Virus record (IMG/VR): IMGVR_UViG_3300037246_001629
Span: 1 to 54,986 of that record
Length of the DNA stretch: 54,986 nt
Origin: a virus
Lineage: Duplodnaviria > Caudoviricetes
Strand: one strand, 5' to 3'
This document shows positions 24,612 through 54,986 of the stretch, in pieces. Position 1 is the first letter of the stretch, and each line of letters opens with the position of its first letter. The notes below the pieces were generated by a model that worked only from the letters and a program-made list of their open reading frames with translations, was not told the DNA's origin and did not search any database. Both the position numbers and the translations under genes were made by a program.

Positions 24612-24749
24612 ATGCAGTCAGGATAATTCCAATAGGTCAGATCAACCAGCTTGGCAACGAGTATAGTTATCCTTTCCGCACGATCACGTTAGCAGGCCTC
24701 GTGCACAGATATCTGAGGATATCGATATAGAGGCGTGATCACTTTTTTT
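24612..24749 (+). ncRNA. Candidate small structured RNA
   Basis: Own promoter copy, nested stems, T7 tract at the end, no ORF. Confidence 0.5.
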
Positions 24750-24809
24750 ATATTTTTACAAAATGATATAAATCTATTAATATATTGGATTCAAGTATTT
24801 ACTAGTAAC

Positions 24810-27325: not shown

Positions 27326-27407
27326 TCACATAAATCTGAATCTAATGTGCATTCATCGTGTAATTTATCCCTACATGCTTCAGAGATAAAACCATTATCA
27401 ATTATGC

Positions 27408-28482: not shown

Positions 28483-28725
28483 TTACTTGAAGATATATAA
28501 AAATATAATTAAACTAAATTGGAATATTGAAAAAATTGATACTAGTTTCAGTATCCGATTCATAGATCTTATTTTATTATCCTGGACAAGCAGCGTATCA
28601 GTCAGATATTTAATGCTATCATTCATCAGATTTGTGGTCTCAATATTACCCGCACTAAATTCATTATAATTTGCTAGTAATTTAGCATACTCCTCCTGTG
28701 TAACATAAGGGCTGAAATTACTCAT
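28483..28725 (-). CDS. Small C-terminally anchored membrane protein
   Basis: LVSIFSIFQFSLIIFLYIF. Confidence 0.55.
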   Translation of the reverse strand: MSNFSPYVTQEEYAKLLANYNEFSAGNIETTNLMNDSIKYLTDTLLVQDNKIRSMNRILKLVSIFSIFQFSLIIFLYIFK

Positions 28726-36365: not shown

Positions 36366-36686
36366 ATGAGTGTCAGAAATTTAGAGAAAGAGATCAAGAG
36401 ATTGAAAGGAAAGGTTACTAGCCTTAAAAATGACCTTAAAGGACAACGCAACAGGAATATTGATCTGGATAAGAGAGTCCAGAGCTTTGCAAGGACAGTA
36501 CGCTATCAGAAAGCAATGATCACGCGGATGACTGATCTTGAGAGTATTTTCAGGATTGCCATACTGACCAATTATGGTTTTGATGGATCTATGTACAATG
36601 TCATAGATGGTGTGGAAAAGATTACGCCCCTACAGGATGCAATGCAGATTCCAGTCGATCACAAAATACTGAGGTATAGCAAATGA
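36366..36686 (+). CDS. Coiled-coil protein
   Basis: Heptad pattern, GAGGAG RBS. Confidence 0.65.
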   Translation: MSVRNLEKEIKRLKGKVTSLKNDLKGQRNRNIDLDKRVQSFARTVRYQKAMITRMTDLESIFRIAILTNYGFDGSMYNVIDGVEKITPLQDAMQIPVDHKILRYSK

Positions 36687-36907
36687 CCGAAACATTAGTA
36701 GGTGCTGCAATACAGATGAGGAAGCTTATGGTAACCGTAACAAACAAATCAGCAATTTTAGCAAGCCATAGAACTGATTTAGATATGAGGATTAAGAAAT
36801 TACAATACCGAATATCTAATGAAACTATGACGTCTGAGGGATTAATAGAGTCCCAAGCCTACAGAGATGCATATCTATTCACAAAGAAGGTGCTTGATGA
36901 ATTATGA
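36683..36907 (+). CDS. Hypothetical protein
   Basis: Coupled ORF, GAGG RBS. Confidence 0.55.
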   Translation: MTETLVGAAIQMRKLMVTVTNKSAILASHRTDLDMRIKKLQYRISNETMTSEGLIESQAYRDAYLFTKKVLDEL

Positions 36908-37076
36908 GCGATAGAATAAGAGCATATTGCACTGACTGCAGGATATATTACTCAGAAAAAGATGTCGTGAAGATGGATGAAGAGGAGGGTGATACCACCA
37001 TTGTTTTCAGAATCAAATGCAAAGAATGTAATGTTAATATATTCTGGATGCATAAAGATAAGGAGAATGAGAAAAA

Positions 37077-37721
37077 ATGAGCCTAGGATTTAGAGATCTT
37101 AATAAAGTAACCATTAGTCGCGAAACACGATTGGAACTGGAATTCAGACAACGCAATATAATTCTGAATTTCTTTATGGATAAATCAACATATGGATTAC
37201 AGGATATTCTTACACGATATGCTGAGATGTGTATGTGTGAGGAAGAACCCTGCGAGATATGTAGATTTGTTGAGAATGATGATATCATATCGCTTATAGT
37301 AATGTGGTGTGAATGTGGACATCAGTTCGAATCACATATATCTGGCAACTATGGAAATGGTAGATGTCTCATATGTCATTGCGAGCATTATAATGAATTG
37401 AAAATGGATATTCCATACTGGAGAAGAGAATATGATTTTAGACCACAGGCACTTAATTGCAGAGGATGTAACCTGCTGAATAAAGATACTGTTGCTAGAG
37501 ATACAGGAGATAATTATATCTGTTCAGAATGCAAAGAGAGTAAAAAATGTGAGGTCTGGGAAAAAAGAGATGATTTAACAGAGGAAGAATTAATGATTGT
37601 TGGCCTTCTAAAAACCTATTGTTCTGTATGTATCAGGGAATTCCAGTATGATCCAGATATTGAGGATGGAAAACCTAGCCCATGTTGGAAATGCAAGGAA
37701 AAGATGAGGTTGGATAAATGA
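37077..37721 (+). CDS. Multi-zinc-finger protein
   Basis: Many CxC/CxxC/H motifs. Confidence 0.65.
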   Translation: MSLGFRDLNKVTISRETRLELEFRQRNIILNFFMDKSTYGLQDILTRYAEMCMCEEEPCEICRFVENDDIISLIVMWCECGHQFESHISGNYGNGRCLICHCEHYNELKMDIPYWRREYDFRPQALNCRGCNLLNKDTVARDTGDNYICSECKESKKCEVWEKRDDLTEEELMIVGLLKTYCSVCIREFQYDPDIEDGKPSPCWKCKEKMRLDK

Positions 37722-37918
37722 CTGAACAGATATACAATCTCAGAGAATTACAGGATATCTATGAGGGATACAAGAATGATGGGAGAACACACATATGTCA
37801 GTTATGCGTGAATGATATTTCTAAGAGCAATTGTCCAAGTTTTCAGAGAATAATAGGAAAAGTTGAGGCATTAGAATTATTAATCAGAAATAAAAATGGA
37901 GGCTCGTTAGTATTATGA
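37718..37918 (+). CDS. Small Cys-containing protein
   Basis: HICQLC...C. Confidence 0.55.
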   Translation: MTEQIYNLRELQDIYEGYKNDGRTHICQLCVNDISKSNCPSFQRIIGKVEALELLIRNKNGGSLVL

Positions 37919-38331
37919 ATATTCGACATAAATATTATCGTTTCCAAAATTGGTTGCAAAGAAAAGAGACTGAAAAAATTCTCAGAGAAATGAAAAAATG
38001 CTACATTCGAATTGTGAAAAAATGTGATGTGGGTAATTGTACTCATAAGGCAGGATGGCAGTGTTTACGATGCGGATTTAGAATATGTTCTGGTGATTGT
38101 CATGATCTAGATATAAAGGAATATCCTGGTGATGGAACAGATTATTGTTTAGGTTGTGCAGAATACCATGAGGAATACGAAGAAGTAGTATCTCTTTCCA
38201 GTTCTCTTGTAATACATGACAAATCATATTTTAACACATGTGATGATTGCAGCAAGAAGTTTGAGACTGGAGATTTTTACAGGCATTTCCGTACAGGTGA
38301 GATAAAAATGTATAGGGAGACTAAACAATGA
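37915..38331 (+). CDS. B-box/HIT-like zinc-finger protein
   Basis: CDVGNC...CLRC...C...CH...CLGC. Confidence 0.6.
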   Translation: MNIRHKYYRFQNWLQRKETEKILREMKKCYIRIVKKCDVGNCTHKAGWQCLRCGFRICSGDCHDLDIKEYPGDGTDYCLGCAEYHEEYEEVVSLSSSLVIHDKSYFNTCDDCSKKFETGDFYRHFRTGEIKMYRETKQ

Positions 38332-38649
38332 AAATAGATATTTCTAAAACTATACGCAACTTCATTCACTTCGTGAAATATAGACATAAACTGGATATGA
38401 TGTACGTTCTAAATGTCGATATTAATTTTTCTCCAATTAAATTTGAAAGAGATAATCATTGTGTTACTTGTAGAAAGGAGAATGAGAATCAATGATTAAA
38501 CCAATCACGCAATCAGAAATAGACAAACTGATAGAATATATAGAGGATATATCAGAATACACAAATCCTGATGGTGGAGGTGCATACCCTGCAGTAACAA
38601 AGATGAAGTCTCTTCTAACAAGAATTGATAATAAAGGAGTTGTCGCATA

Positions 38650-38868
38650 GTGAAACTGGAAATTTATGGTGAGAGGAAATATCTATACAGCGAACTCAAA
38701 GATGTTGCAGAGATAAAACAAGATATGGTTGCCAATAAAGAGAATAAGGATTATATCTCTAAGATCCTCACACATAAACTCACTGCACGATTATACAGGG
38801 CCTTATACAGTATAAGACCTGAATATCCAACAACTGAAGATTTAAGAGGAAGTGAGAATAATGGGTAA
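38650..38868 (+). CDS. Hypothetical protein
   Basis: 72-aa ORF. Confidence 0.5.
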   Translation: MKLEIYGERKYLYSELKDVAEIKQDMVANKENKDYISKILTHKLTARLYRALYSIRPEYPTTEDLRGSENNG

Positions 38869-39151
38869 GAAATATCCCCGAGATTATGATATATGCACTG
38901 GATGCAATAGCACTATCATGAATAAAACTACATTGCCAATTGTATGTAATGCATGTGCTAAAAAAGAACAGATGAATATAGAGATACTTACATGCCATAA
39001 TTGCGGTAAAGAGGAAAGCATTGATCATAGTAAAAGAGGTATCAAAAATCATGCTGAGAATGCTGAGAAATATCATGGCTGTTCAGATTGTGGACATATG
39101 CGAGTACCTGAAGAACCCAAAAGCGGAAGTGAGGTTAAATATGACAATTAA
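38852..39151 (+). CDS. Double Zn-ribbon protein
   Basis: Four CxxC pairs. Confidence 0.6.
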   Translation: MRIMGKKYPRDYDICTGCNSTIMNKTTLPIVCNACAKKEQMNIEILTCHNCGKEESIDHSKRGIKNHAENAEKYHGCSDCGHMRVPEEPKSGSEVKYDN

Positions 39152-39542
39152 AGAAGATGTTGAGCTGATATACAGAAATGCGATACATAACAATATTCCA
39201 GATTGTCCCTGTGCTAGATGTGATACAGGTGAATTACTTGTATCATTCATGAAAATTAAAGGAATACCGATTTCAGAATATCTGAATTATAAGATGGTAA
39301 AAGAGATCATCCGACAGCTCCCCATGGTAGAACGCGTATCGCGAACCATCAGAAATGATGAGGGAAAATTCAAAGGCAATGATTATATCGAGGAGATCCG
39401 CGATAGTAAGGCAAATGAACACCGCGTCAGCATGAAAAAGATACCTGTAAAAGTATGCAAATCATGCAGTGCAGATAATCCAAGTATGCTTACAATGAGA
39501 GGCATGTTTTGTAATAGAATCTGCTATGATAGGGGATATTGA
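39141..39542 (+). CDS. Hypothetical Zn-binding protein
   Basis: Start moved to 39141 (GAGGT RBS); CPCARC, CKSC...CNRIC. Confidence 0.6.
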   Translation: MTIKEDVELIYRNAIHNNIPDCPCARCDTGELLVSFMKIKGIPISEYLNYKMVKEIIRQLPMVERVSRTIRNDEGKFKGNDYIEEIRDSKANEHRVSMKKIPVKVCKSCSADNPSMLTMRGMFCNRICYDRGY

Positions 39543-39637
39543 TATGTTGGAGAAGTTAGGTATTAAATCAGCAATGTTTGTGTATTTCTTACTTTTATTA
39601 TTTTTATTTGCAGGTATATATACCGTTGAGGTGTTCC

Positions 39638-40414
39638 ATGAGTAAAATCAAAGGAGTATTCCGATATCCAGGAAGTAAAAACAAAGCAGCAAATGAAATT
39701 ATCTCATATTTTCCACAGCATGATTTATTTGCTGAGATATTCGGTGGTTCCGCTGCTGTGATTATCAGAAAAGAAATATCAAAAGTTGAGATATATAATG
39801 ATATCAGAAATGATCTAGTTAATTTATTTCAGGTACTAGTCCATAATTTTGATGAATTTGAGAATAAAGCACAATTCATGGTTAATTCACGATCATGGTT
39901 CTATGATATCAAAGAGGGGAAGTTACCCAATACAGATTCTATTGATAAGGCAATTAATACTTATTACACTCTTAAATTTTCATTTGCAGGTAGAAGATCA
40001 GGATGGCCTTTATCAATCAATCAGAATTCTAGACCATCAATAGATTTGAAATTCTTGAAAAAAATTAGTACGCGATTCTCACAAGTACAGATAACTGACT
40101 ATGATTATAAAAAAGCAATTACTAAAATTCAAGATCAGAATAAGGATCATAAAATTCTATATTATCTGGATCCCCCATATCCAGGTGTTAGATCAGAATT
40201 ATATGGTGAAAAATTTGATAATATCGAATTCGAGGAATTTTTGAATGAGATACAGGATCCATGGATCCTATCCTATCCTGCGAAGCTAGATGGATGGTAT
40301 TCAGTACCGATTAAAATACAGTATTCTCTTGTTAAACAAGAAATCGTCACAGAGTATCTTATATCCAATATTCCTTTTAAGAAAAGGTCATCACTGGAGA
40401 GGTTTATCAAATGA
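39638..40414 (+). CDS. dam: Dam-like (D12 class) DNA N6-adenine methyltransferase
   Basis: FRYPGSK, EIFGGS, YND, YLDPPY; start 39638 with GAGGTG RBS. Confidence 0.9.
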   Translation: MSKIKGVFRYPGSKNKAANEIISYFPQHDLFAEIFGGSAAVIIRKEISKVEIYNDIRNDLVNLFQVLVHNFDEFENKAQFMVNSRSWFYDIKEGKLPNTDSIDKAINTYYTLKFSFAGRRSGWPLSINQNSRPSIDLKFLKKISTRFSQVQITDYDYKKAITKIQDQNKDHKILYYLDPPYPGVRSELYGEKFDNIEFEEFLNEIQDPWILSYPAKLDGWYSVPIKIQYSLVKQEIVTEYLISNIPFKKRSSLERFIK

Positions 40415-40788
40415 AAAAACATCAAGCCGCGTATATTCCTGTGAATATCACGCGTAAAGAAGCACAGGAAATATTTGAACATGAATTAAAGCTTATGGGC
40501 CTAGAATTCACGCAAAGATATGATAATCATAATATATACAATATTAAAGGGAAATTAAATAATGATGTCCTCAGAAGTATGAGCATCAAATGGTATATCA
40601 GAGACCTAACCATGCAGGAAGCAAAACTTGCTGAAAAAACTAGGAAATTAAGAAAGGCAATGCATAAAAAAATTGCAAAGATATTTGGTGTTACTCCCAT
40701 TCAAATGGGAAGTTCAAACAGAAAACCAAAGAAAACTTTACCTCCAGAAGAGATAACAATAATTGAATTTATGGGGCCTAAACTGTGA
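40411..40788 (+). CDS. Hypothetical protein
   Basis: 125-aa coupled ORF. Confidence 0.6.
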   Translation: MKKHQAAYIPVNITRKEAQEIFEHELKLMGLEFTQRYDNHNIYNIKGKLNNDVLRSMSIKWYIRDLTMQEAKLAEKTRKLRKAMHKKIAKIFGVTPIQMGSSNRKPKKTLPPEEITIIEFMGPKL

Positions 40789-40980
40789 GTGGCAGTAACC
40801 ATTCAAGGAGACATTAATATGTGTAATTTATTCAGAAAATACGGACACAAATGGACCACATGCGATAAATGTGGTGAAAAAATAAAAGTTTGTGCGATAC
40901 ATGATACAGGCGAGAAAAAACATTACAAAGTATGTGGACCATGCTATGTGAGCTTTACAGAGGTAGTACAGAATGTTTGA
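40789..40980 (+). CDS. Small zinc-finger protein
   Basis: C..H..CDKC, CAIH...CGPC. Confidence 0.55.
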   Translation: MAVTIQGDINMCNLFRKYGHKWTTCDKCGEKIKVCAIHDTGEKKHYKVCGPCYVSFTEVVQNV

Positions 40981-41272
40981 GACTATTGATAAGAAACTGT
41001 TTCATCCTCAGCGGATTACTATGATTTATCTCATGATAATTCAGAAGGTGAATACTTTCAGAGGATTCAAAGATTATATTAATAATATTAGCGATGGAAA
41101 TCTTATATCTCATCTACGAGCACTGGAACAGGCAGGATTTATTATTATTGAGAAAACTATTAAGAATAATAAATACCGTACATTATACAAATTGTCAGTA
41201 ACTGGAGATAAAAAATTCAAAGAAATGCTTGAGGGTATGGTAATTATGGCAAACGAGGCTTACAATATATGA
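40973..41272 (+). CDS. Winged-helix transcriptional regulator (HTH_34/ArsR-like)
   Basis: HPQR...F......ISDGNLISHLRALEQAGFI..EK......RTLYKLS..G. Confidence 0.8.
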   Translation: MFETIDKKLFHPQRITMIYLMIIQKVNTFRGFKDYINNISDGNLISHLRALEQAGFIIIEKTIKNNKYRTLYKLSVTGDKKFKEMLEGMVIMANEAYNI

Positions 41273-41544
41273 GCTATGAAATCCTATCACCTGTTACCAG
41301 GATCCTGAAAAGAGGATTGTGTATTGTTGGATGGCACTTTGTCAATCATGATACGCTGATATGTGAATCATGTAAGAATTCATTCACTAAAGATTTCGAT
41401 AAGGGAATTCCATATTATCGGAAATCAAAGTATTACACATGTTTAGATGCAAAATGTGCTAAAGAATTCAAAGGAAAAGGACCTGGATTCTGTTCAGATA
41501 AATGTTCCATAGATCATATGGGAATATCAACGGAGGAGAACTAG
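41269..41544 (+). CDS. Zinc-finger protein
   Basis: C..GWH...CESC; C...C...FCSDKC. Confidence 0.6.
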   Translation: MSYEILSPVTRILKRGLCIVGWHFVNHDTLICESCKNSFTKDFDKGIPYYRKSKYYTCLDAKCAKEFKGKGPGFCSDKCSIDHMGISTEEN

Positions 41545-41952
41545 ATGTTTAGTTTTATCCGTACCCCATTATCGCATTTCTTCATGTGGTGGGGTCTAGT
41601 ATTTGATATGATTGCAGTCTGGATACATCCTAATAAAATTGTAGAGGAGGATCCTGAAATGTTCACTTATCACTTATCACAACTAAAAGAGAAATATCCA
41701 GATCTATACTCATCATTTGATATTGTAAAATATAAAGAAGAGAAATCAAAGAATCATTTCTGTAAGAATCTGGATGCTGATGAGGATATAACCATTTCAG
41801 AAAATAGAAGAGGCGGAATCACTCAGTATTGGCTGATTGATAGTAGTCGTGCATGTATATGCGGTCGTGAATCGGAATATGTTCTTATTATATTCTTTTG
41901 TCCATGGTGTGGAATAAAATTACCACCTAGAAAAATTAAGGAGAATAGCTAG
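41545..41952 (+). CDS. Hypothetical protein, N-terminal hydrophobic segment and Zn ribbon
   Basis: HFC...FFCPWCGIKL, similar to 25483..25680. Confidence 0.6.
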   Translation: MFSFIRTPLSHFFMWWGLVFDMIAVWIHPNKIVEEDPEMFTYHLSQLKEKYPDLYSSFDIVKYKEEKSKNHFCKNLDADEDITISENRRGGITQYWLIDSSRACICGRESEYVLIIFFCPWCGIKLPPRKIKENS

Positions 41953-41953
41953 A

Positions 41954-42226
41954 ATGTCAGACGATATTAATCCAATCCATAAGAAGATAAGAGATGAATT
42001 GTATTTTATTCTCAGAGAAGATAATGACGATCTGTACAGGCATGAATTTGTTACTACTATGTGTGTTAAATTCAAGATAACCAAATCGCTTGTATACAAG
42101 GAGATAGAGAAAGCAATTGATAGCGGAGACATTGAATACTTCAAACCATATCGACTTCCATTCGCAAGGGCCAAGGCAATGAGAATGGTTACCGAACCAG
42201 AAAGACCAAAAATAATTAAATTATAA
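41954..42226 (+). CDS. Winged-helix-like protein next to candidate origin
   Basis: ITKSLVYKEIEKAIDSGDIEY helix-wing pattern. Confidence 0.5.
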   Translation: MSDDINPIHKKIRDELYFILREDNDDLYRHEFVTTMCVKFKITKSLVYKEIEKAIDSGDIEYFKPYRLPFARAKAMRMVTEPERPKIIKL

Positions 42227-42264
42227 TTACTTAGATAAATGATTAATTAGTAGTAGTATATCAA

Positions 42265-42509
42265 CCCCCCCTCCGCATGATTTCCTACGGAAGTGTAAAA
42301 ATAATTTTTTAAAGCATGTAAAAAGCCTGAAAACGATGAATAATAGACCTATTTCTTATTCCATACGAAATAGCCTATATCAATAGACTCTTTTTCCGTT
42401 ACTAGAATTATAAATATATAAATAGAATCTATAGAAAATAGTCATATATACAAAACATGATTTTCTAGTTTTTTTCGCTCAAGTTTTTCCAGTTCATAGG
42501 AAATCATGC
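42265..42509. other. Candidate replication origin: inverted ORB-like boxes around an AT-rich core
   Basis: GCATGATTTCCTA (42275-42287) and its reverse complement (42497-42509); C7 run at 42265-42271. Confidence 0.45.
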
Positions 42510-42578
42510 TAGCACTGAGGTAGTTATAATACGATTGGTTTAAACAACAGTTAAGTAATAGTATTATAATATAAACAT

Positions 42579-42992
42579 GTGATTGATAACAAACCAGTCA
42601 AAATACATAATTATCATAAATTCCCATATCTAATAGATAGATCAAGTAATGTATATTCACAGCGAGGATTTATATTAACTCAGAGAAAGAACAAACCTGG
42701 ATATGTGATAGTTGATCTGCACAAAAAAGGAAAGAGCAAGCAGGTTGTGGTGCATAGACTAGTAGCATTGGCCTTTTTGAAAAACGAAAGAGATCCGTTT
42801 ATTTATAGATTAGTGGATCATATAGATGGAGATCTATTAAATAATAAAATCTGTAATCTACGCTGGATATCCCACAAAGAGAATATGCAATACACGAGAG
42901 AACGCGGTAATTATGAATTTGCAAACAGATTGGATGAATGGATTAATCTGAATCATAATCATAAAGTATGTATCTGTGAACTTAGCAAATAA
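42579..42992 (+). CDS. NUMOD4-type HNH homing endonuclease
   Basis: GYVIVDL, VHRLVALAF, VDHIDGDLLNN...NLRWISHKEN. Confidence 0.85.
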   Translation: MIDNKPVKIHNYHKFPYLIDRSSNVYSQRGFILTQRKNKPGYVIVDLHKKGKSKQVVVHRLVALAFLKNERDPFIYRLVDHIDGDLLNNKICNLRWISHKENMQYTRERGNYEFANRLDEWINLNHNHKVCICELSK

Positions 42993-43018
42993 TTCCTATG
43001 GAACCACTGGAGAAACTA

Positions 43019-43216
43019 TTACCGCCTTGAACATTTTCGGCAATGAAAAATTTTGGTATGGATGCATTTACAACAATGAAATTCATCATGATAATTGAAA
43101 GTATAGAGACAATCAGTAGCATTGCACATAACACATTCATTAGGTCGTATGTACCGCAAAAACGTGAGATAAAAAAATAATCTAAGATTGTGTCTTAATT
43201 CTACTTTTCGCGTCAT
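43019..43216 (-). CDS. Small Cys-rich protein (counter-strand)
   Basis: CVMC...HCCKC...CRKC. Confidence 0.45.
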   Translation of the reverse strand: MTRKVELRHNLRLFFYLTFLRYIRPNECVMCNATDCLYTFNYHDEFHCCKCIHTKIFHCRKCSRR

Positions 43217-43299
43217 AGTAATTCATAATAGAAAATTATGTTTTATTAATACATTTATAGAAATATATTTTTATATAAATTATAATTATATAAATAAGC

Positions 43300-43611
43300 A
43301 TGGAAAATAAAGAAAAAAGTAAAACAATTGCATTAAAAAATACAGTATTTAATATTTTTAAGAAGAATAAACGAAATTATATGGACCTTGAAGATTTCTC
43401 AACCTTCTCTGATTCTAAATTTATGAATATCCTGAATGATCTTTATCTTAAAAAATTGAAAGATATTATATTCAGTAAATTTACCAGGAATGAAAAGGTT
43501 GCTCTGTTATATGCACTGACTGATCATAAACATGATTGTGCTGTATGTCAGGATGACGAGAAATGTAATATCCGCAATCTGATTGAAGTTCTGGAGAATG
43601 AGACAGAATGA
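43300..43611 (+). CDS. Ribbon-helix-helix-like regulator with C-terminal Zn motif
   Basis: SKTIALKNTVF...SDSKFMNIL; HDCAVC...C; leaderless after TATA. Confidence 0.5.
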   Translation: MENKEKSKTIALKNTVFNIFKKNKRNYMDLEDFSTFSDSKFMNILNDLYLKKLKDIIFSKFTRNEKVALLYALTDHKHDCAVCQDDEKCNIRNLIEVLENETE

Positions 43612-43979
43612 AAGTTAAGACCAAAGCTACTGATGAATGCGAGAACTGTGCAACTGATCAGCAGCATTGTTTTCTTGGAGATCTCAGTTGTAATTGTAAA
43701 CGTTGCGATGATGCACTCAAACAGGAGGTATTTGCATATATCAATGAACATTGCGAAAGATGTTCTGCAAATTCATATATTCTGCTTGAGAATCATTATC
43801 TGACTGATAGAATGAAGAAGATTATTGAAAATGCCTCACATGATACATTGTATATGATGTGGTTATTTTATAATACTGAGGATAAAGATTGGTACAAGAC
43901 TGAGAAAGAGGAGGCAGTTTTTACTAAGGAATTCAATAAGAGTTGGATCCGTAGATTGATAAGGAAGATACGCACATGA
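43608..43979 (+). CDS. Cys-rich hypothetical protein
   Basis: CENC...HC...CNCKRC. Confidence 0.6.
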   Translation: MKVKTKATDECENCATDQQHCFLGDLSCNCKRCDDALKQEVFAYINEHCERCSANSYILLENHYLTDRMKKIIENASHDTLYMMWLFYNTEDKDWYKTEKEEAVFTKEFNKSWIRRLIRKIRT

Positions 43980-44371
43980 TTGATAGCGTGATGATTCAGC
44001 AGGCTCAATTTCAAACAGATGCATACATGTATCTCAACAAAAAATATATGATGGCTGCACTTGAAAAGTACATTCTAATAAATTATAATCCATTTATACA
44101 ATTACCAAAATGGGAAAATATGTCAGAGGATAATCAATTCAATGAACGTCATTTCTATTCTAATGAATTATTGGAGGCAATATCTGAATCACACCTTCCA
44201 TATGAATATAAATCCATAATAATTGAATTACTGGACAAATGGATTGAGAATAATACCAGGGTTGGATGGTTGCGAGCAGAACATGGTGAGTATGGTATGA
44301 CATCATTCAAAATATTGTATTATGATATGCTAAAAGCAATAGATCAGTTAGATATGGAGATGTTATCATGA
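43976..44371 (+). CDS. Hypothetical protein
   Basis: 131-aa coupled ORF. Confidence 0.55.
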   Translation: MIDSVMIQQAQFQTDAYMYLNKKYMMAALEKYILINYNPFIQLPKWENMSEDNQFNERHFYSNELLEAISESHLPYEYKSIIIELLDKWIENNTRVGWLRAEHGEYGMTSFKILYYDMLKAIDQLDMEMLS

Positions 44372-44549
44372 TTGAAATAAACTGCCCCTTCTGCGATGGA
44401 AAATCCGTCTCTGATATCATTGATAGAAAAGAGGAAGTAAAAGGACAATGGGAATGTGAAAATGGACATCAATTCATCGTGGAGTGGATTGCATAACTAG
44501 AGAATTTTTTGATCTGTATATAGAGGTAGGATCTATAAGCTGTCTTTCA

Positions 44550-44852
44550 ATGAAAGAGAATAGACCACTTGATGATCTGGAACATATAAGATTGCATTCA
44601 GTAGAGATGGAAGATCTGATCAAACAGATTCTTAAATATAAAGGTGAGATGAAATTTATCAGAAAACCTGTTAAGAAACTGGAAGAATTTTTCGCATACC
44701 TCGAGATGAATCCAAAGGAAAAATGTTTGATACTGGATACTAGACATGGTCCTGATACCTGCGGAACTGTTGATAGTGTGTATTGCAAGGCACATGAGAA
44801 ACCCTGTTCTTTATTTATCTGTTTCTGTAAAAGGAGATTTGAAAATGTGTAA
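44550..44852 (+). CDS. Hypothetical protein with Cys/His motif
   Basis: Start moved to ATG 44550. Confidence 0.5.
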   Translation: MKENRPLDDLEHIRLHSVEMEDLIKQILKYKGEMKFIRKPVKKLEEFFAYLEMNPKEKCLILDTRHGPDTCGTVDSVYCKAHEKPCSLFICFCKRRFENV

Positions 44853-45090
44853 TCGAAAAGATTGGAGTGATTGGGCGAACATATATAAAAATATGCCTAT
44901 GAAAGAGATCCATGCGAGAATAAGTGAATTGCGTGAGGAAATATTACAGATGGAGAAAAAAGTCGCTGCATTATCACTTCAGGAATATAATGTTACAGAG
45001 ATGAAGAATGAGAAGATAAAAGAATACCGCAATCTCACTCATGAGCGGACCTGCATTGAACTTACATTAGCATCAATGGCATTGGGATGA
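44845..45090 (+). CDS. Coiled-coil protein
   Basis: GGAG RBS before ATG 44845. Confidence 0.55.
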   Translation: MCNRKDWSDWANIYKNMPMKEIHARISELREEILQMEKKVAALSLQEYNVTEMKNEKIKEYRNLTHERTCIELTLASMALG

Positions 45091-45095
45091 TTTAG

Positions 45096-45356
45096 ATGTC
45101 AGTTTCGTATAAGCGATCAATCGAGAATGAAAAAAGAAATAATATAAAATACAAATGCCCCCTCTGTATTTACAACACAAGTTCATTTTCTAGATTAAAA
45201 GATCATGAGAATAATTTTGATCATGATAAATTAACAACTGTCCTGAATAAGCATGGTAAACATGATTATTCATGCAATGAGTGTGGATATCGCACTGTTA
45301 GTAAAGCTAGAATAAATAAGCATCTGAATAAACACAGGAATAAAAATGCGAAATAG
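45096..45356 (+). CDS. Tandem C2H2 zinc-finger protein
   Basis: YKCPLC.Y.....RLKDH....DH and YSCNECGY.....RINKHLNKH. Confidence 0.75.
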   Translation: MSVSYKRSIENEKRNNIKYKCPLCIYNTSSFSRLKDHENNFDHDKLTTVLNKHGKHDYSCNECGYRTVSKARINKHLNKHRNKNAK

Positions 45357-45600
45357 TTTCACAGATGGGTCTCAGTTTGATAATTATGATCGGCTTAGAT
45401 TATTATATGCAAACGTTGAGAAACCTGTAAAGGAATTGCATCAATGGGTTATCATATATGATGATCCATATCCAAAAACAGTATCTAGAATTAAATGCAG
45501 ATGCAACTCCAATCCAACCATGCATGAGATTGTAACAGAAACAAATACAAAGGTATGTACTGAATGCCATAAATTATCAACTAATAATACAGTACACTAA
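45346..45600 (+). CDS. Small Zn-ribbon protein
   Basis: CRC...CTEC. Confidence 0.55.
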   Translation: MRNSFTDGSQFDNYDRLRLLYANVEKPVKELHQWVIIYDDPYPKTVSRIKCRCNSNPTMHEIVTETNTKVCTECHKLSTNNTVH

Positions 45601-45623
45601 TAAAGTATACTTTAATTTATATA
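45591..45623 (+). promoter_or_regulatory. Operator AGTACACT-N5-AGTATACT plus TATA box
   Basis: Matches 23228-23260 in sequence and spacing. Confidence 0.6.
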
Positions 45624-45649
45624 TTCCCAATACAAATACATTATTAGCT

Positions 45650-46066
45650 ATGACACAATGTAATCATAATTTAAGGAAAGTTTACAGGCGAGATCAGACA
45701 AATAGAAAGGATCAGTATGTCCGTATTGATACACATGGATATTGCTTGGCCTGCATGTCAGTGGTAAAAGGTATTATTTTATCCGATTTTAAAACAATAC
45801 GCGAAAATTTTGAAGCCACTATAATACATCACTATCCAGAATTTCAAATGAATATAGTTTCTAAACTTCATAAAAAACTAGGATTTGTCACAGATCTTGA
45901 TAGTAATAAAATATGCTATACAATTCAAAATAATCCTGAGATGTTATTCAATATACTTGGAATGTTTGATTTATATCAGGCTAATACAGGATATACGGAA
46001 CTAGATAATACTGATTATGTGGTGATAGACTGGGATGAAATAAATGAGGTGTATGTAAATGAGTGA
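45650..46066 (+). CDS. Hypothetical protein
   Basis: Leaderless after TATA; CNH...CLAC. Confidence 0.6.
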   Translation: MTQCNHNLRKVYRRDQTNRKDQYVRIDTHGYCLACMSVVKGIILSDFKTIRENFEATIIHHYPEFQMNIVSKLHKKLGFVTDLDSNKICYTIQNNPEMLFNILGMFDLYQANTGYTELDNTDYVVIDWDEINEVYVNE

Positions 46067-46514
46067 GCCTAATTTATTAACCAATAGAACTACAGACGTG
46101 AAATGTGTCTGTCGGAAGAAAGATAAGGATTGCAAAGTACGAATTCTTTGGAAGTGTAAGAGATGTGGGATCTCTGCAATGTATGATTGTAATAGGTGTA
46201 TGGTATGCGATCCACATACCACTCATAAAGAAGTTACTTTGACTCACTGTTATGATTGTGGGATGACACCATGCGATGATTGTCAAATGGGTGAGAGTAA
46301 TTGTTGTACCGAACCACCAATGAATTTCGGAAAACCTCATGATTGCTTCTGTCAAAACTCTTGGAATACTGGATGCTGTTGTATGACCGCAACTCTTGAT
46401 GAAACACAGATGGAGTTCTGTCAGAATTGTCATGAATTTTCAGGTCTATTCGAAGAGGATGAACCAAGGAACATATTTGGAAGAATTATACAATGGATAA
46501 GGAGTTTCTTCTAA
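46059..46514 (+). CDS. Very Cys-rich protein
   Basis: More than 20 Cys in 151 aa; GAGGTG RBS. Confidence 0.65.
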   Translation: MSEPNLLTNRTTDVKCVCRKKDKDCKVRILWKCKRCGISAMYDCNRCMVCDPHTTHKEVTLTHCYDCGMTPCDDCQMGESNCCTEPPMNFGKPHDCFCQNSWNTGCCCMTATLDETQMEFCQNCHEFSGLFEEDEPRNIFGRIIQWIRSFF

Positions 46515-46894
46515 TGACCAGACTTGATACCATAAGTATTGAGGATGATCTTCAAGATGTTGTCTTAAAATCTTACTACAAGAGAAAATTGAAAATATCT
46601 ATTATTTCTAAGAATATGACATGGGATGAATTCAAAATTACATTTGATTGGTTACCTTTTGATTTAGTTGAGCAATTAGTAGATTTTAATAATACACATC
46701 GAAGAAATCCATACCAACATTTTAATGATTATAATACTCCTTTAAATATTGATAATTTCACATATCATATTACTGAGAGCGATGGAGAAAGAGTTTCAGG
46801 ATTATTTATTCATATGTGGAATAATATGGGTAGATTAGTAAAATTTGATACTTATAGAGTTGTAGCGTTTGATTGGAATGGGGATTTGTTCTAA
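46514..46894 (+). CDS. Hypothetical protein
   Basis: GGAG RBS, TAATG coupling. Confidence 0.6.
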   Translation: MTRLDTISIEDDLQDVVLKSYYKRKLKISIISKNMTWDEFKITFDWLPFDLVEQLVDFNNTHRRNPYQHFNDYNTPLNIDNFTYHITESDGERVSGLFIHMWNNMGRLVKFDTYRVVAFDWNGDLF

Positions 46895-47349
46895 TGTCAG
46901 AACGTAAACACTTTGAATTAGTGGGATATGTATCAGGTGAGAAAATCTATTGTCTAGAATGTTCTCAAAGTTTACCTGAATTACATGTTATAACTGGAAA
47001 TGTTATTTTTAGAGTAGCACTAGAATATTCACTTGCTAAAGAAAAGTGTGATAAATGTGAGCAACAAATAGTTCCAGATGATAATGATATCCGCAGGTGT
47101 AGAAAATGTTTGGTAGGCATATATCACGGTACGCTATGCAAGAGTGAAAAATGTGGAAAATCTAGTTTGCATGGAATAGAATTCAATGATTGTATTAGAT
47201 GTGTGAATAAGCCCTCTGAATTGATATGCAACCATTGTAATGAATATTTCTGTAAGGAATGTTTTGAGAAAGAAACAATTCCACATCAGATAAACTGGAC
47301 ACCTGAGGATCCAGAATATTATACGAATATAAGTAGTTGGTCGGGATGA
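46894..47349 (+). CDS. Multi-zinc-finger protein with C-terminal B-box-like motif
   Basis: CIRC......CNHCNEYFCKECF....PH. Confidence 0.65.
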   Translation: MSERKHFELVGYVSGEKIYCLECSQSLPELHVITGNVIFRVALEYSLAKEKCDKCEQQIVPDDNDIRRCRKCLVGIYHGTLCKSEKCGKSSLHGIEFNDCIRCVNKPSELICNHCNEYFCKECFEKETIPHQINWTPEDPEYYTNISSWSG

Positions 47350-47470
47350 ATTTATTCAAGAAATTTAAAGAGGAATATGATTCATGGGGATTTATGAACC
47401 TTTATGTTTTTTGGCTAATCACCGTGGATATAATCTTCATAATTATTTTTCTAATAGTAGAGGTTTTGTA

Positions 47471-48664
47471 ATGAGTAAATCAAGTTTCATATCATTAGCA
47501 GATCTGAAGAATACTGATAATAATCTTTCAAAATTAGTTCATAAATCAATTCAGAATATAGTTGACAGTCTTTCGGATAATCCAGATCAAATAATTGTAG
47601 TTTCAACATCAGGTGGGAAAGATAGTTCTGTTCTTTGTGCTTTATTTATGCTTGCTGTAAAATGGGGATTAATTGATCCAAAAAGATTAAGATTTACTTT
47701 TTCAGATACAAAGCTAGAATTACCAACACTGCATAAGCATATAACTCTTCTTTTTGAATATGCAAAAAGTCTGGGTATTGAAAGCGTAATCGTTAAGCGA
47801 CAGAAAGCAACCTACTGGACACGCGTTCTGGGATTAGGTACATTCACATCTAACTGGAGAGAAAGATGGTGTGTACAATTATTGAAATTGGGTCCGCTGC
47901 AAAAATATTTTAAAACTCTTCCAAAGGATCATATTGTTGCAACAGGTGTTAGACGTTCTGAATCTGCAGTTAGAGAAACAAAATATAAAGACGCACAGCA
48001 AACAATAAAGGAAATGAAGAAAACAACCTGTGATACCGCAGGTGAATGCTTTGTTAATCTAGAAGATCTTGATAATGTATTCCATCCTATATTGGATTGG
48101 TTAAATTGTCATATCTGGGATTTCATAAGATTTTTTTATCATGGAATTCCGCTACATCTTCTTTTTGATCTTTATTTGGGTGAGGATAGTGCTAGGTTAG
48201 GTTGTTGGAACTGTACTGTTGTCTCTACTAATCTAGTAGTCGAGAAAATGGGTAAAACTGATTTCAGATATAAAATTTTACATAATATCTGGACCGAATT
48301 AAAATTCTATAATAAACCTGAGACTAGGCCTTTGGATTGGATTTATATTTTTAGAAATGCAGGAAGGTCTGCTACAAAAGACACTATCGGTATGAAATGG
48401 AGGCCATCATTCATCAGACTAGAAGTAAGACAGAGGATATTTAATATGTTAATTGATGCACAAGAAGAAACAGGGTTCGAATTAATTTCAGAAGAAGAAA
48501 TTATTACTATTAAAAAATTATGGGAAACCAGGACAAATAATTTTGATCCTGTAATTAAGAGATCTGCACCTGTAAAAGTAATTGACCAGATGTCAAAAGA
48601 TGATCTTACTAAAATAGATAAGAGAATACATATCAGGATTGCAACTTTGGAGGATTTTTTCTGA
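47471..48664 (+). CDS. DndC-like PAPS-reductase-family (PP-loop) protein
   Basis: SGGKDS, SDTKLELP, RWC...LKLGP, GVRRSES..R, PILDW, RLGCWNCTVV, R......L..Q.....LISEEE...I...W. Confidence 0.75.
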   Translation: MSKSSFISLADLKNTDNNLSKLVHKSIQNIVDSLSDNPDQIIVVSTSGGKDSSVLCALFMLAVKWGLIDPKRLRFTFSDTKLELPTLHKHITLLFEYAKSLGIESVIVKRQKATYWTRVLGLGTFTSNWRERWCVQLLKLGPLQKYFKTLPKDHIVATGVRRSESAVRETKYKDAQQTIKEMKKTTCDTAGECFVNLEDLDNVFHPILDWLNCHIWDFIRFFYHGIPLHLLFDLYLGEDSARLGCWNCTVVSTNLVVEKMGKTDFRYKILHNIWTELKFYNKPETRPLDWIYIFRNAGRSATKDTIGMKWRPSFIRLEVRQRIFNMLIDAQEETGFELISEEEIITIKKLWETRTNNFDPVIKRSAPVKVIDQMSKDDLTKIDKRIHIRIATLEDFF

Positions 48665-49458
48665 TGAATCATAAACTATACAAAAATAGTTCCGAGGATA
48701 TGAGTCTAGTAGCTGATAATTCGGTTCATATGGTAATTACAAGTCCACCATATAATGAGGATAAAAAATATGGAGATATTCCTGGTTCTGATTTATCACC
48801 CTGGAAAGATTATATTCCACTGATGAGAACAGTATTCACAGAGGCAAAACGAGTACTAGTTCCTGGCGGAAGAGTTGCTGTAAACATTGCAAATCTAGGA
48901 CGATTCAATGAAACGAGGGGTACATATTACAAACCTTTAAAATCACTATTTGAGGAAATATTACTCAATCTAGATTTGATATATTTAGGTGAGATTGTAT
49001 GGTGGAAATCAACTAGTGCAAATATCAAAACTGCATGGGGTTCTTTTCTTTCACCGCGTGCTCCATCATTACAAGATACTCATGAATACATTATTATTTT
49101 CAGAAAGGAAGGAGAATTTCCAATACCTCGAGAATATGAAAATAATCCAAAAATTATTCCTCAACCTAGATTTATGAAACTTATAAAATCTATCTGGAAT
49201 ATTGCTGCAAGAAGAAATAAATCTCATCCTTGTGTTTTTCCTGATCAACTAGTAGATAATCTACTTACTCTTTATACTTTTCCAGGACAAACAGTATTGG
49301 ATCCATTTGGAGGAAGCGGGACCACTGCAAGAGTTGCTAAACAACTAGGTAGAAATTCAATATCATTTGAGGTAGTTCCACGATTCCAGAAAATGATAGA
49401 GATTGAGATAGGAAAAACATTCATACAGGATTGGTTTGAGGGGTTGGATAATGAATAA
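48664..49458 (+). CDS. Beta-class N4-cytosine/N6-adenine DNA methyltransferase
   Basis: TSPPY ... HPCVFP ... VLDPFGGSGTT in beta order. Confidence 0.9.
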   Translation: MNHKLYKNSSEDMSLVADNSVHMVITSPPYNEDKKYGDIPGSDLSPWKDYIPLMRTVFTEAKRVLVPGGRVAVNIANLGRFNETRGTYYKPLKSLFEEILLNLDLIYLGEIVWWKSTSANIKTAWGSFLSPRAPSLQDTHEYIIIFRKEGEFPIPREYENNPKIIPQPRFMKLIKSIWNIAARRNKSHPCVFPDQLVDNLLTLYTFPGQTVLDPFGGSGTTARVAKQLGRNSISFEVVPRFQKMIEIEIGKTFIQDWFEGLDNE

Positions 49459-49900
49459 AAGAAATAGTCTTATTATTGATTTATGTTCAGGTGGTGGAGT
49501 GTTGGCCGAGGCATTTTATGATAGTGTGGGTCTAGACCTGGACCGAGATAAACTAAAATATTATCCTAATCAAAAAATTCAAGGTTCTGCAATACAAACA
49601 CCATTCAGAAATAAAGCTGTGTATTTTGCTAATGGATCACCACCATGTCAGGCATTTTGTTCATTAGCAGATAAAGAAAAACATATTGATATCGTGGATC
49701 CAGTGAGAAAAGAATTGCATCGAATTTCTGAGAAGTATTCAATTGAGAATGTGGTGGGTGCTCCTATCAGAAAGGACCTAATGTTATGTCAGTCAATGTT
49801 TGATTTACCTGTAAAAGTTTCAGGATTAGGCGTACCTCCTTCATTCATGAATTATATACTGGACCATTTAGATAATAAAAATTTAGATGATTTTTTTTAA
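49451..49900 (+). CDS. Short C5-cytosine methyltransferase-like protein
   Basis: DLCSGGG (I), GSPPCQ (IV), IENV (VI); appears to lack the target-recognition region. Confidence 0.65.
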   Translation: MNKRNSLIIDLCSGGGVLAEAFYDSVGLDLDRDKLKYYPNQKIQGSAIQTPFRNKAVYFANGSPPCQAFCSLADKEKHIDIVDPVRKELHRISEKYSIENVVGAPIRKDLMLCQSMFDLPVKVSGLGVPPSFMNYILDHLDNKNLDDFF

Positions 49901-54977: not shown

Positions 54978-54986
54978 GCGAAATAG
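54978..54986. repeat. Terminal direct repeat GCGAAATAG (copy 2)
   Basis: Identical to positions 1-9. Confidence 0.85.

Follow-up and report, generated by a model that had tools for sequence, protein, structure and literature searches.

Candidate PCNA-docking tails on predicted DNA-modification enzymes of a virus with archaeal affinities

Why should four predicted DNA-modification proteins encoded by one virus finish in similar short peptides? The stretch of DNA that raises this question, hereafter the window, is a 54,986-nucleotide virus record from IMG/VR (IMGVR_UViG_3300037246_001629), analyzed as a whole. An original prediction made from its letters had assigned PIP-box-like tails, of the kind used by archaeal partners of the sliding clamp PCNA, to four enzymes. 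All four ORFs do lie on the plus strand and carry the ends quoted for them: KRSSLERFIK in the Dam-like protein, RIATLEDFF in the DndC-like protein, KTFIQDWFEGLDNE in the beta-class methyltransferase (MTase), and NKNLDDFF in the small C5-like protein, each directly before the stop codon (Table 1). Each appears to be built from a hydrophobic residue and, after two spacers, a pair of residues that are aromatic or hydrophobic, placed on what would be a flexible linker at the C-terminus or close to it. This design seems to have been appended to unrelated folds, its carriers being a DndC-like PP-loop enzyme, a small C5-like protein, and two MTases, one D12 Dam-like and the other beta-class N4/N6. 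We favor, as the probable explanation, that the tails are PIP-type short linear motifs coupling viral DNA modification to the PCNA and replisome of the host.

Table 1. Positions in the window of the predicted enzymes, their putative tails, and a fifth tail-bearing protein.
Feature	Position	Strand	Length or residues	Matches and remarks
D12-class (Dam-like) N6-adenine DNA methyltransferase, predicted	39638..40414	+	258 aa from ATG	PF02086, phrog_56, DPPY
Dam-like tail RSSLERFI, PIP-like 8-mer	40385..40408	+	residues 250-257	followed by K and stop; Arg at the Gln position
Cys-rich protein ending IQWIRSFF and stop	46059..46514	+	151 aa	one of 3/110 ORFs with the exact-end motif
PP-loop ATP pyrophosphatase, PAPS-reductase family, DndC-like, predicted	47384..48664	+	426 aa	PF01507, PADLOC DndC
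DndC-like C-terminal extension	48527..48661	+	residues 382-426	ends IATLEDFF and stop
Beta-class N4/N6 DNA methyltransferase, predicted	48664..49458	+	264 aa	PF01555, phrog_67, SPPY
KTFIQDWF, PIP-like box	49414..49437	+	residues 251-258	6 residues before the end of the beta-class MTase
Small C5-cytosine-MTase-like protein (weak family call)	49451..49900	+	149 aa from ATG	phrog_363; internally deleted copy
NKNLDDFF, PIP-like box	49874..49897	+		exact C-terminus of the C5-like protein

The Dam-like ORF, which would encode 278 aa from an alternative TTG start at 39578, matched PF02086 at 4.2e-17 (63.2 bits against a cut-off of 22) and phrog_56 at 6.4e-44, and its translation contains the catalytic motif DPPY within YYLDPPYPG; on these matches it is predicted to belong to the D12-class N6-adenine DNA methyltransferase family. 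Identity with the Dam equivalog was rejected, TIGR00571 giving 59 bits against a cut-off of 114.85. The beta-class ORF, whose start shares one base with the stop of the DndC-like ORF, matched PF01555 at 4.9e-37 (128.4 bits against 26.7) and phrog_67 at 9.5e-48, carries SPPY near its N-terminus within VITSPPYNE, and is predicted to encode a beta-class N4/N6 DNA methyltransferase. The product of 47384..48664 matched PF01507 (5.7e-20) and PADLOC DndC (2.6e-22) and, as judged by these profiles, belongs to the PAPS-reductase/PP-loop superfamily and is DndC-like; the homologue alignment (A4) shows no variation in SGGKDS and GCWNC, and the structural neighbors of its AF2 model (mean pLDDT 71.8) are PP-loop proteins. 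With DndC of Dnd phosphorothioation and BrxP of BREX type 4, it shares the PP-loop/PAPS-reductase fold, SGGKDS, and the CxxC pair, and DndC is its best profile. It differs from them in that TIGR03183 reached 66.3 bits against an equivalog cut-off of 290.4, for which a true DndC identity was rejected, and in that the Pfam matches of the 87 window ORFs include no Dnd partner family.

The C5-like ORF (154 aa from an alternative TTG start at 49436) matched the phrog_363 family "DNA methyltransferase" at 2.9e-6, its relatives doing so at 9.3e-13 to 6.9e-5. The window copy had no Pfam match, the protein had no PDB sequence match, its AF2 model had a pLDDT of only 31, and the best of its relatives scored E = 0.072 against PF00145 (12.9 bits against a cut-off of 22). 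By eye, DLCSGGG, SPPCQ, IENV, and GLGVPP are present. "C5-MTase" is nevertheless a weak family call for 49451..49900: on these results the window copy is not placed in the C5-cytosine DNA methyltransferase family (PF00145), which is marked by motifs I (FxGxG), IV (PCQ), VI (ENV), VIII (RxR), and X together with a target-recognition domain, and phrog_363 is the sole support. In alignment with five relatives, which are 206-221 aa long, the window copy lacks 63 aligned residues, including the RHR block, at a gap between F117 and D118 (~49801/49802). Because these residues occur in all five relatives, the window copy may be inactive.

To judge how unusual the tails are, we counted motifs in 110 ORFs of at least 40 aa, picked greedily so that none overlap; some of the short ones are probably spurious, but all were kept. 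Expectations were derived from 2000 composition-preserving resamplings. The motif [LI]xx[FW][FI] occurred within the last 11 residues of six ORFs against 1.31 expected (5/2000 resamplings reach six); its carriers are the four enzymes, the Cys-rich ORF 46059-46514, and a 42-aa ORF at 44368-44496. At the exact C-terminus it occurred in three ORFs against 0.19 expected (0/2000 reach three), as did the stricter [LIM]xx[FWY][FWY] (0.30 expected; 4/2000). Within the last 11 residues, however, the strict form was not significantly enriched (five against 2.08 expected; 117/2000). The count over all ORF ends that the original prediction proposed as a check is favorable at the exact C-terminus and unfavorable for the strict motif nearby. 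The above-chance signal inside the window consists of the three exact-end tails in FF only, and for LERFIK and IQDWF the window alone gives no such signal, so that comparative evidence is needed. A Fisher test of the motif in 4/4 enzymes against 2/106 other ORFs gave p = 2.6e-6, a post hoc value because the motif was fitted to the four tails. As to the PIP consensus Qxx[LIMV]xx[FWY][FWY], its hydrophobic and two aromatic positions are satisfied by IATLEDFF, KTFIQDWF, and NKNLDDFF, while RSSLERFI has F-I. The Gln is absent from all four, as had been noticed at the outset, and canonical Qxx[LI]xx[FY][FY] boxes are found in relatives.

The comparisons relied on homologues of each enzyme and on contig C302 of the metagenome-assembled genome (MAG) G001, a related virus in which 25 of the 110 window ORFs have matches. 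The C5-like tail lies beyond GLGVPP..M.YI, the final block conserved in its family. Its Leu is invariant, an aromatic residue stands at +3 in 6/6 members and Phe at +4 in 5/6, and L-x-x-aromatic is retained in all five relatives, whose ends include LETWF at the stop, LKEWF eight residues before it, QPKLEEYF three before it, and QHPLEAFN two before it, the last two with Gln. We regard this tail as quite likely to be a PIP-type clamp-docking motif. For the beta-class MTase, the PF01555 match stops at residue 245 of 264. Two close relatives, at 68-69% and 61-62% identity, have KTFIQDWF unchanged, and the residues after it vary (EGLDNE, IELDN, GEL). A 41%-identical MTase has QTKLDDFF directly past its domain, and the orthologous slot in C302 reads QSNLSDYY; here too a docking motif is likely. 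Of the C302 ORFs, 2/107 have a canonical Q-box within their last 22 residues (0.34 expected from resampling), and these two are the beta-class MTase and the C5-like protein, with QSNLSDYY and QPKLEEYF.

The DndC-like tail overshoots the ends of 15 aligned homologues by 14-39 residues, and the pLDDT of the AF2 model falls below 50 at residues 386-401 and 413-426. A canonical box was found in the last 25 residues of none of 36 homologues, the tail being in this respect a further difference from DndC and BrxP, and in two crenarchaeal viruses the PAPS reductases have no such tail at their ends. We consider that this tail, too, is probably a clamp-docking motif. The Dam-like tail lies past the domain end EYLISN, and some homologues terminate 1-4 residues beyond LISN. 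It can be aligned with QTSL..F tails in a hand-picked set of homologues, and in the nearest relative, P0162 (63% identity), the tail is QTSLGEDFL, that is L-x-x-x-F-L with a spacing one residue longer. Tails of at least eight residues are present in 85/118 single-domain sequences of this family, and canonical Q-boxes occur in these tails four times against 0.2 expected (0/1000 shuffles reach four). The window tail, with F-I and then K, is the weakest of the four and weak by itself, and we put a docking function for it at about even chances. The evidence supports the tails being extensions outside the catalytic folds in the DndC-like, Dam-like, and C5-like proteins, with the Pfam match of the beta-class MTase also ending before its tail; PIP boxes of PCNA clients lie in flexible segments beyond the folded domain, in archaea often at the very C-terminus. 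All four enzymes may plausibly have gained their tags independently.

These data bear on the view that the tails hold no functional motif and arose by chance, by composition, or from overlapping translation signals, a GGAGG-type ribosome-binding site (RBS) being read as L-E-[DR] and a T-rich spacer as Phe. The codons for L-E-D in the DndC-like tail (TTG GAG GAT) coincide with the GGAGG-type RBS of the overlapping downstream gene, and those for L-E-R in the Dam-like tail (CTG GAG AGG) double as the RBS for the gene that overlaps at 40411, for which reason part of the motif in these two tails may have been shaped by translation signals. The motif was moreover defined after the four tails had been seen, its strict form is not enriched in the last 11 residues, and its loose form is frequent near C-termini (13/110 ORFs, last 15 residues). 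Against this, NKNLDDFF is free of RBS constraint since no gene overlaps it downstream, IQDWF is located upstream of its RBS, the exact-end motif is enriched, the relatives keep the motif despite other codons, other spacing, and an added Gln, and in C302 the stop follows the boxes after 3 and 14 residues. We therefore find it quite unlikely that the tails are without function.

If the tails are docking motifs, the identity of the host matters. Among 50,697 records of a phage collection, the major capsid protein (MCP), which is 65-68% identical between the window and C302, matched archaeal viruses in 9/9 cases and the portal in 10/10, which supports grouping the window virus with archaeal tailed viruses and from which we infer an archaeal host. 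Six-frame searches of the window found no PF00705, PF02747, or PF00136, and neither 87 ORFs of the window nor 37 of C302 have a Pfam match to a PCNA or polymerase family. The window has a completeness rating of 86%, so that a clamp gene outside it is possible in principle, but synteny with C302 spans both window ends, which argues that little is missing. As the virus is of archaeal type and shows no PCNA or family-B polymerase of its own, the host clamp is the natural target of the tails, and replication would be carried out by the host replisome.

A bacterial host, whose beta clamp or SSB-tail recognition pocket would then bind the tails, appears very improbable. The consensus of bacterial beta-clamp-binding motifs is of the QL[SD]LF type, likewise a penta- or hexapeptide tag found across diverse DNA enzymes, and many homologues of the Dam-like enzyme end in ..Q..LF (8/84 family members against 0.56 expected). 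SD-like sequences precede 33/89 window genes, a language-model comparison likens the MCP to SU10-type capsid clusters, and C302 was binned in a MAG labeled gammaproteobacterium. A contig such as C302 (54 kb, 31% GC, a whole virus-like genome) is nevertheless easily mis-binned, the MCP and portal match archaeal viruses only, and the beta clamp belongs to another clamp family with another motif spacing, whereas the window tails and the boxes of their relatives have PIP spacing rather than Q-L-x-L-F. PF00705 was not found in G001, and its absence from the rest of that MAG is uninformative on the host either way.

Co-folding with an archaeal PCNA, as suggested in the original prediction, gave a positive result for the DndC-like tail. 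Residues 381-426 were paired with Swiss-Prot PCNA_NITMS, a stand-in PCNA from an arbitrary archaeon, and reached an ipSAE of 0.69 (runs 0.69, 0.69, and 0.68), compared with 0.02 for the best of three controls and 0.00 when PCNA was replaced. Of solved complexes, 51/78 reach the mark that this pair passed, and of mismatched pairs, 2/108. The runs share at least 53% of their contacts, and the pLDDT of the partner is no lower than 48. In the modeled interface, residues 416-426 are placed against PCNA residues 41-48, 122-126, 224-225, and 241-248, and L422 and F425 abut these residues, which we take from general PCNA anatomy to be the PIP-peptide face. The pass may reflect a memory of the motif class, PCNA-PIP peptide complexes being common among solved structures.

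That last point also favors a partner other than PCNA, which could be a different protein of the host's replisome or repair machinery, a scaffold encoded by the virus, such as the Cys-rich 151-aa protein, or the tails themselves binding each other in a modification complex. Shared, conserved add-on tails imply a likely common partner and not its identity, the Gln is absent from every window tail, and a fifth protein bears a tail as well: the Cys-rich ORF had been raised as a caveat to the clamp interpretation, its IRSFF end is indeed present in the translation, and it had no Pfam, PHROG, or NCBIfam match and no atlas lead. We hold a non-PCNA partner to be unlikely, given that relatives carry full canonical PIP boxes with Gln at the same place, that the co-fold sets L422 and F425 on PCNA and drops to zero when PCNA is replaced, and that the Pfam matches of the window and C302 yielded no alternative hub candidate in either virus.

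PCNA is the receptor that we propose. The clamp tag originally suggested gains from the add-on position, conservation, and exact-end enrichment of the motif, the archaeal-virus affinity, the lack of a viral clamp, and the co-fold, and loses from the weak Dam-like tail and from the two tails that overlap an RBS. On the host PCNA ring that remains on new DNA, the tails would enter the hydrophobic pocket beneath the interdomain connecting loop, the enzymes would thereby be concentrated on nascent viral DNA, and this DNA would be modified ahead of cutting by host restriction enzymes, which is what the virus would gain by tying modification to replication. Since the tails resemble the peptides by which archaeal replication proteins grip PCNA, modification of the viral DNA probably takes place at the replication fork.

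In archaea, according to a review on Haloferax volcanii (PMC7776575), PCNA clients with a C-terminal PIP box include the RFC large subunit, PolD DP2, RNase H2, Fen1, NreA, PolY, and Hef; a short QxxLxxFx-type box lets such archaeal clients ride the clamp, and degenerate boxes, for example that of PolY, are tolerated. The window tails match these boxes in position and spacing, with the canonical form in relatives, but their carriers are virus-encoded DNA-modification enzymes rather than replication or repair factors, and the window copies have no Gln. Our literature search found no paper on clamp-docking tails of viral DNA-modification enzymes, and the papers that it found on clamp-binding motifs, methyltransferases, and phages, one of them on MuC of phage Mu, do not describe methyltransferase tails. 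A DNA methyltransferase coupled to PCNA is known in DNMT1, whose tethering, according to the sources, leads to preferential methylation of newly replicated DNA (PMC9690074, PMC5393148, PMC4575159); in the window the binding is only predicted. [quoted passage not shown]

Translation of the window returned the four DNA-modification ORFs and their C-terminal ends exactly as the original prediction had quoted them (LERFIK, LEDFF, IQDWF and LDDFF in the Dam-like, DndC-like, beta-class methyltransferase and C5-methyltransferase-like proteins, respectively). The first three family labels were firm (PF02086, 4.2e-17; PF01507, 5.7e-20; PF01555, 4.9e-37), whereas the C5-like protein had no Pfam match above the cut-off and no PDB sequence match; its assignment comes from phrog_363 (2.9e-6 for the window copy, 9.3e-13 to 6.9e-5 for relatives) and from motifs recognized by eye. 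We counted the motif [LI]xx[FW][FI] over a greedy, non-overlapping set of 110 ORFs of at least 40 aa, none removed, using composition-preserving resampling as the null (2000 resamplings). It occurs in the last 11 residues of six ORFs, against 1.31 expected (5/2000 resamplings reach six), and at the exact C-terminus of three, against 0.19 expected (0/2000). The strict form [LIM]xx[FWY][FWY] gave three ORFs at the exact end (0.30 expected; 4/2000) and only five in the last 11 residues (2.08 expected; 117/2000). The exact-end counts mark the three FF termini, LEDFF, LDDFF and the IRSFF of a Cys-rich 151-aa protein, as a real anomaly, whereas LERFIK and IQDWF are unremarkable taken alone. All six motif carriers lie in a plus-strand block at 39.6–49.9 kb. 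The sole canonical PIP box near an end in the window belongs to a hydrophobic 80-aa ORF, and we take it as chance.

Features of the window (nucleotide positions)
Feature	Position	Strand	Remark
PF11195 protein	5902-6624	-	E = 5.9e-6
Major capsid protein	11959-13197	-	tailed-virus structural module
Portal fusion	16727-20239	-	tailed-virus structural module
Large terminase	20300-22141	-	tailed-virus structural module
PF11195 protein	24735-25076	+	E = 1.8e-11
147-aa ORF	27408-27851	-	end LKDELFEGELL
Hydrophobic 80-aa ORF	28483-28725		canonical box near end
PF11195 protein	34491-35711	-	E = 8.7e-13
Run of small Cys-rich proteins	36366-47349	+	with zinc-ribbon or C2H2-like proteins
Dam-like enzyme	39638-40414	+	end LERFIK
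HNH endonuclease	42579-42992		in the Cys-rich run
Small Cys-rich protein	45096-45356		in the Cys-rich run
Cys-rich 151-aa protein	46059-46514	+	in the Cys-rich run; end IRSFF
133-aa ORF	46493-46894		end WNGDLF
Small Cys-rich protein	46873-47349		in the Cys-rich run
DndC-like enzyme	47384-48664	+	end LEDFF
Beta-class methyltransferase	48664-49458	+	IQDWF near end
C5-like protein	49436/49451-49900	+	end LDDFF

The Cys-rich 151-aa protein has no family match, and its best atlas score (0.81) is at chance level; it belongs to a long run of similar small proteins. The end of the 147-aa ORF recalls the QDWFEGLDNE end of the beta-class methyltransferase, and the motif spacing is not the same. We rejected proteasome docking (HbYX) as an explanation of the FF ends: HbYX motifs have a hydrophobic residue before the aromatic, and in these ends Asp or Ser precedes the aromatic pair. 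Degron and virion-packaging signals were also considered and found to be without support.

Part of the resemblance could stem from translation signals. At its stop codon the DndC-like gene overlaps the start of the beta-class methyltransferase gene, and the Dam-like gene overlaps its downstream neighbor in the same way; the L-E-D (TTG GAG GAT) and L-E-R (CTG GAG AGG) codons make up GGAGG-type ribosome-binding sites, 9–16 nt upstream of the overlapping start. These two motifs may therefore in part be doubly constrained. The overlap gives no explanation for the Phe codons, for the LDDFF tail, which is followed by a 253-bp intergenic region, or for IQDWF, which lies upstream of its GAGGGG site. 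With the exact-end counts and the conservation described below also in view, we consider chance resemblance compounded by such constraints an improbable account of the tails.

The strongest evidence for the tails comes from conservation among relatives. The C5-like tail comes after the last conserved block (GLGVPP..M.YI), with a linker that varies in length and sequence among five relatives (42–74% identity; P0312 was added from a separate look-up). These relatives end in DDDLETWF, in DADLKEWF followed by eight residues (two sequences), in KQPKLEEYFENE or in RQHPLEAFNFV, so that with the window copy the tail Leu is invariant, an aromatic stands at +3 in 6/6 and Phe at +4 in 5/6. Compared with all five relatives, the window copy is missing 63 aligned residues, their RHR block among them, at an in-frame gap between two 'DLP' strings at ~49801/49802, and the motif-IV Cys is Tyr in two relatives (P0159 and P0312). 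The catalytic status of the family is uncertain given this loss and substitution; the tail is nonetheless kept. The AF2 model of another relative, P0158, built with an alignment, was unusable (pLDDT 31.4).

The C5-like protein also led to C302, a contig of a related tailed virus (54,138 bp, 31.4% GC), whose capsid protein is 65–68% identical to that of the window and which has blastp matches to 25/110 window ORFs. A canonical box, Qxx[LIMV]xx[FWY][FWYLI], is present in the last 22 residues of 2/107 C302 ORFs, and these are the beta-class methyltransferase (QSNLSDYY) and its C5-like neighbor (QPKLEEYF); the expectation is 0.34, and 86/2000 resamplings reach two anywhere in the genome. A third methyltransferase-like ORF is a near miss, ending in QTTIDYEFE. 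Two tetranucleotide palindromes are missing from the window altogether, CCGG (30.7 expected) and GCGC (61.7 expected), with no avoidance of GATC (304 vs 324 expected), and C302 contains 2 GCGC (29.7 expected) and 72 CCGG (65.7 expected; no avoidance). Since C302 combines a full-length C5-like gene with CCGG sites, and the window a deleted copy with none, CCGG may be a site that the enzyme protects and that was instead purged from the window, a comparison of two genomes only.

For the beta-class methyltransferase, the Pfam match stops at residue 245 of 264, and KTFIQDWF is kept exactly in two close relatives (68–69% and 61–62% identity) in which the following residues differ. A homologue at 41% identity carries QTKLDDFF directly after the domain; of the 119 homologues listed, no other has a canonical box within 30 residues of its end. 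No relatives were found in IMG/VR with a single sequence or the alignment as query, nor in JGI metagenomes with the alignment.

The DndC-like enzyme belongs to the PP-loop ATP pyrophosphatases and, among profiles, matches PADLOC DndC best (2.6e-22); against TIGR03183 it scores 66 bits, far short of the equivalog cut-off of 290. The structural neighbors of its AF2 model (mean pLDDT 71.8) are PAPS domains of FAD synthases, GMP synthetases and PAPS/APS reductases. The conserved core ends in ELISEEEIxxIxxxW, and the window protein runs 14–39 residues past the ends of 15 aligned homologues; in the model, most of the core (45–385) is confident apart from loops at 212–215 and 316–341, and residues 386–401 and 413–426 fall below pLDDT 50. 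No canonical box occurs in the final 25 residues of any of 36 homologues, and one of them has the [LI]xx[FW][FI] motif in the last 11. No relatives were found in IMG/VR, and the window protein as query found none in G001, the MAG that holds C302. The PAPS reductases of the crenarchaeal viruses ATSV and SMV2, tried as further carriers, form a shorter subfamily ending in CPLCRTLI and CPLCSTLTF, with the tail absent. To our knowledge, the PAPS-reductase/DndC-like family is common in archaeal viruses, and its role has long been unexplained.

Residues 381–426 of the DndC-like enzyme were then co-folded with Swiss-Prot PCNA_NITMS, a stand-in clamp whose choice does not imply a Nitrosopumilus host. 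The predicted complex placed the tail on this PCNA: the score was 0.69 (runs 0.69, 0.69 and 0.68), compared with 0.02 for the best of three controls, and the mark applied is reached by 51/78 solved complexes and 2/108 mismatched pairs. The runs agreed in at least 53% of contacts; pLDDT of the DndC-like fragment was at least 48, so that its own fold is uncertain. Confident predicted contacts were confined to residues 416–426 (HIRIATLEDFF), with L422 and F425 against PCNA residues 41–48, 122–126, 224–225 and 241–248, a surface we take to be the pocket under the interdomain connecting loop and the C-terminal tail, that is, the PIP site. Many PCNA–PIP peptide complexes have been solved, and the result therefore shows likeness to that class rather than binding. 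Docking on a hub protein other than PCNA would likewise call for a conserved tail; with these predicted contacts and the canonical boxes of C302 alongside it, we regard it as unlikely.

The Dam-like tail comes after the domain end EYLISN, and some homologues stop 1–4 residues past that Asn. In P0162, the nearest representative (63% identity), the end reads SKQTSLGEDFL, with the Gln and Leu and one extra spacer residue. An alignment hand-picked for tails is illustrative only, and an unbiased count was made separately on the window protein and 117 single-domain sequences of 230–330 aa from the best 150 matches (33 excluded for length). Tails of at least eight residues were present in 85 sequences; 11 carry a loose PIP-like motif (5.0 expected; 8/1000 shuffles reach 11) and four a canonical box (0.2 expected; 0/1000). 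Within the best 150 homologues (P0162–P0311), 16/84 tails have [LM]F in the last five residues (3.1 expected; 0/2000 shuffles) and 8/84 have Q..LF-type ends (0.56 expected), both resembling the bacterial beta-clamp-binding motif; other tails end in GQxGLDAFAD or in acidic residues plus W. In phages, too, orphan Dam enzymes may commonly carry clamp tags.

We read the window as an archaeal-type tailed virus, and its host domain as probably archaeal, because its capsid and portal matches are exclusively archaeal viruses. When 50,697 phage records were searched by tblastn, the major capsid protein matched nine records (9/9 archaeal; eight of Haloarcula tailed viruses and one of a Methanofastidiosa-assigned virus) and the portal ten (10/10 archaeal; eight Haloarcula-virus records and two of one Methanomassiliicoccales-assigned virus); the terminase had a single weak match. 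A tail tube, tape measure and tail fiber are also encoded. A bacterial host, with tails that bind the beta clamp, would fit the title of the C302 MAG, a gammaproteobacterium; C302 carries a complete set of tailed-virus genes, of the type found in archaeal viruses, and is probably a mis-binned virus, and we hold this alternative to be very unlikely. Six IMG/VR contigs encode distant capsid relatives (32–33% identity), and neither PF01555 nor PF02086 was found in the two fragments examined. Neither virus has a clamp or polymerase gene in the searches made: six-frame profile searches of the window found no PCNA_N, PCNA_C or DNA_pol_B (archaeal controls were positive), a profile search of G001 found no PCNA_N, and no clamp or polymerase family was among the Pfam matches of 87 window ORFs or 37 non-structural C302 ORFs.

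The evidence speaks strongly for a clamp tag on the C5-like protein and the beta-class methyltransferase, well for one on the DndC-like enzyme, and only weakly for one on the Dam-like enzyme. The tails are probably PIP-type docking peptides that would hold the modification enzymes at the host's PCNA rings during replication of the viral genome, such that viral DNA would be modified before host restriction acts. What the sequences show directly is the motif with its enrichment, add-on position and conservation; the receptor, host domain and benefit are the inferred parts of this reading. According to passages of PMC7776575, archaeal RFC, PolD DP2, RNase H2, NreA, PolY and Hef bear C-terminal PIP boxes (QxxLxxFx), and a passage of a clamp review lists eukaryotic Dnmt1 as its single methyltransferase among clamp clients (PMC9690074; see also PMC5393148 and PMC4575159). 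A PCNA-tethered DNA methyltransferase is already known in eukaryotic DNMT1. In the full-text literature outside subscription journals and supplements, we found no description of such tails on methyltransferases of archaea or archaeal viruses. PIP-mediated recruitment is itself established; DNA-modification enzymes as a new client class are partly supported. If the tails bind PCNA, they would provide a simple rule for how a virus that lacks a replisome times its protection against restriction. They would then also help to pick out enzymes that act on DNA from among viral genes with no annotation, in this case the PAPS-reductase/DndC-like protein, and the difference between PIP and beta-clamp motifs would allow the host domain of an uncultured virus to be read from its tails.

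More tentatively, and with some doubt on our part, clamp-docking tags might be a device that orphan DNA-modification enzymes of viruses use generally and across domains, with PIP boxes in archaeal viruses and Q..LF beta-clamp motifs in phages added repeatedly to unrelated folds, so that modification outruns restriction at the fork. If so, the DndC-like tag would mark the PAPS-reductase-like family as replication-coupled DNA-modifying enzymes, and the internally deleted C5-like protein, having retained its tag, might have a second role as a decoy that occupies the clamp.

The window (54,986 bp, an entire IMG/VR virus record; 30–39% GC; no tRNA genes found by tRNA search) is classed in IMG/VR as linear, with a CheckV completeness of 86%. 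No terminal repeat of at least 12 bases was found at its ends; bases 1–9 recur as bases 54978–54986, and in C302 the genes from either end of the window adjoin each other (21808–27602). On these grounds the record probably represents a near-complete, circularly permuted genome despite that class. The portal protein has 1170 aa, of which portal profiles match only residues 90–484, against 769 aa in the C302 orthologue, which points to a C-terminal extension of ~400 residues in the window copy. Finally, three window proteins contain a Tad2-like (Thoeris anti-defence 2-like) domain, PF11195, one of them inside the tail-gene block.
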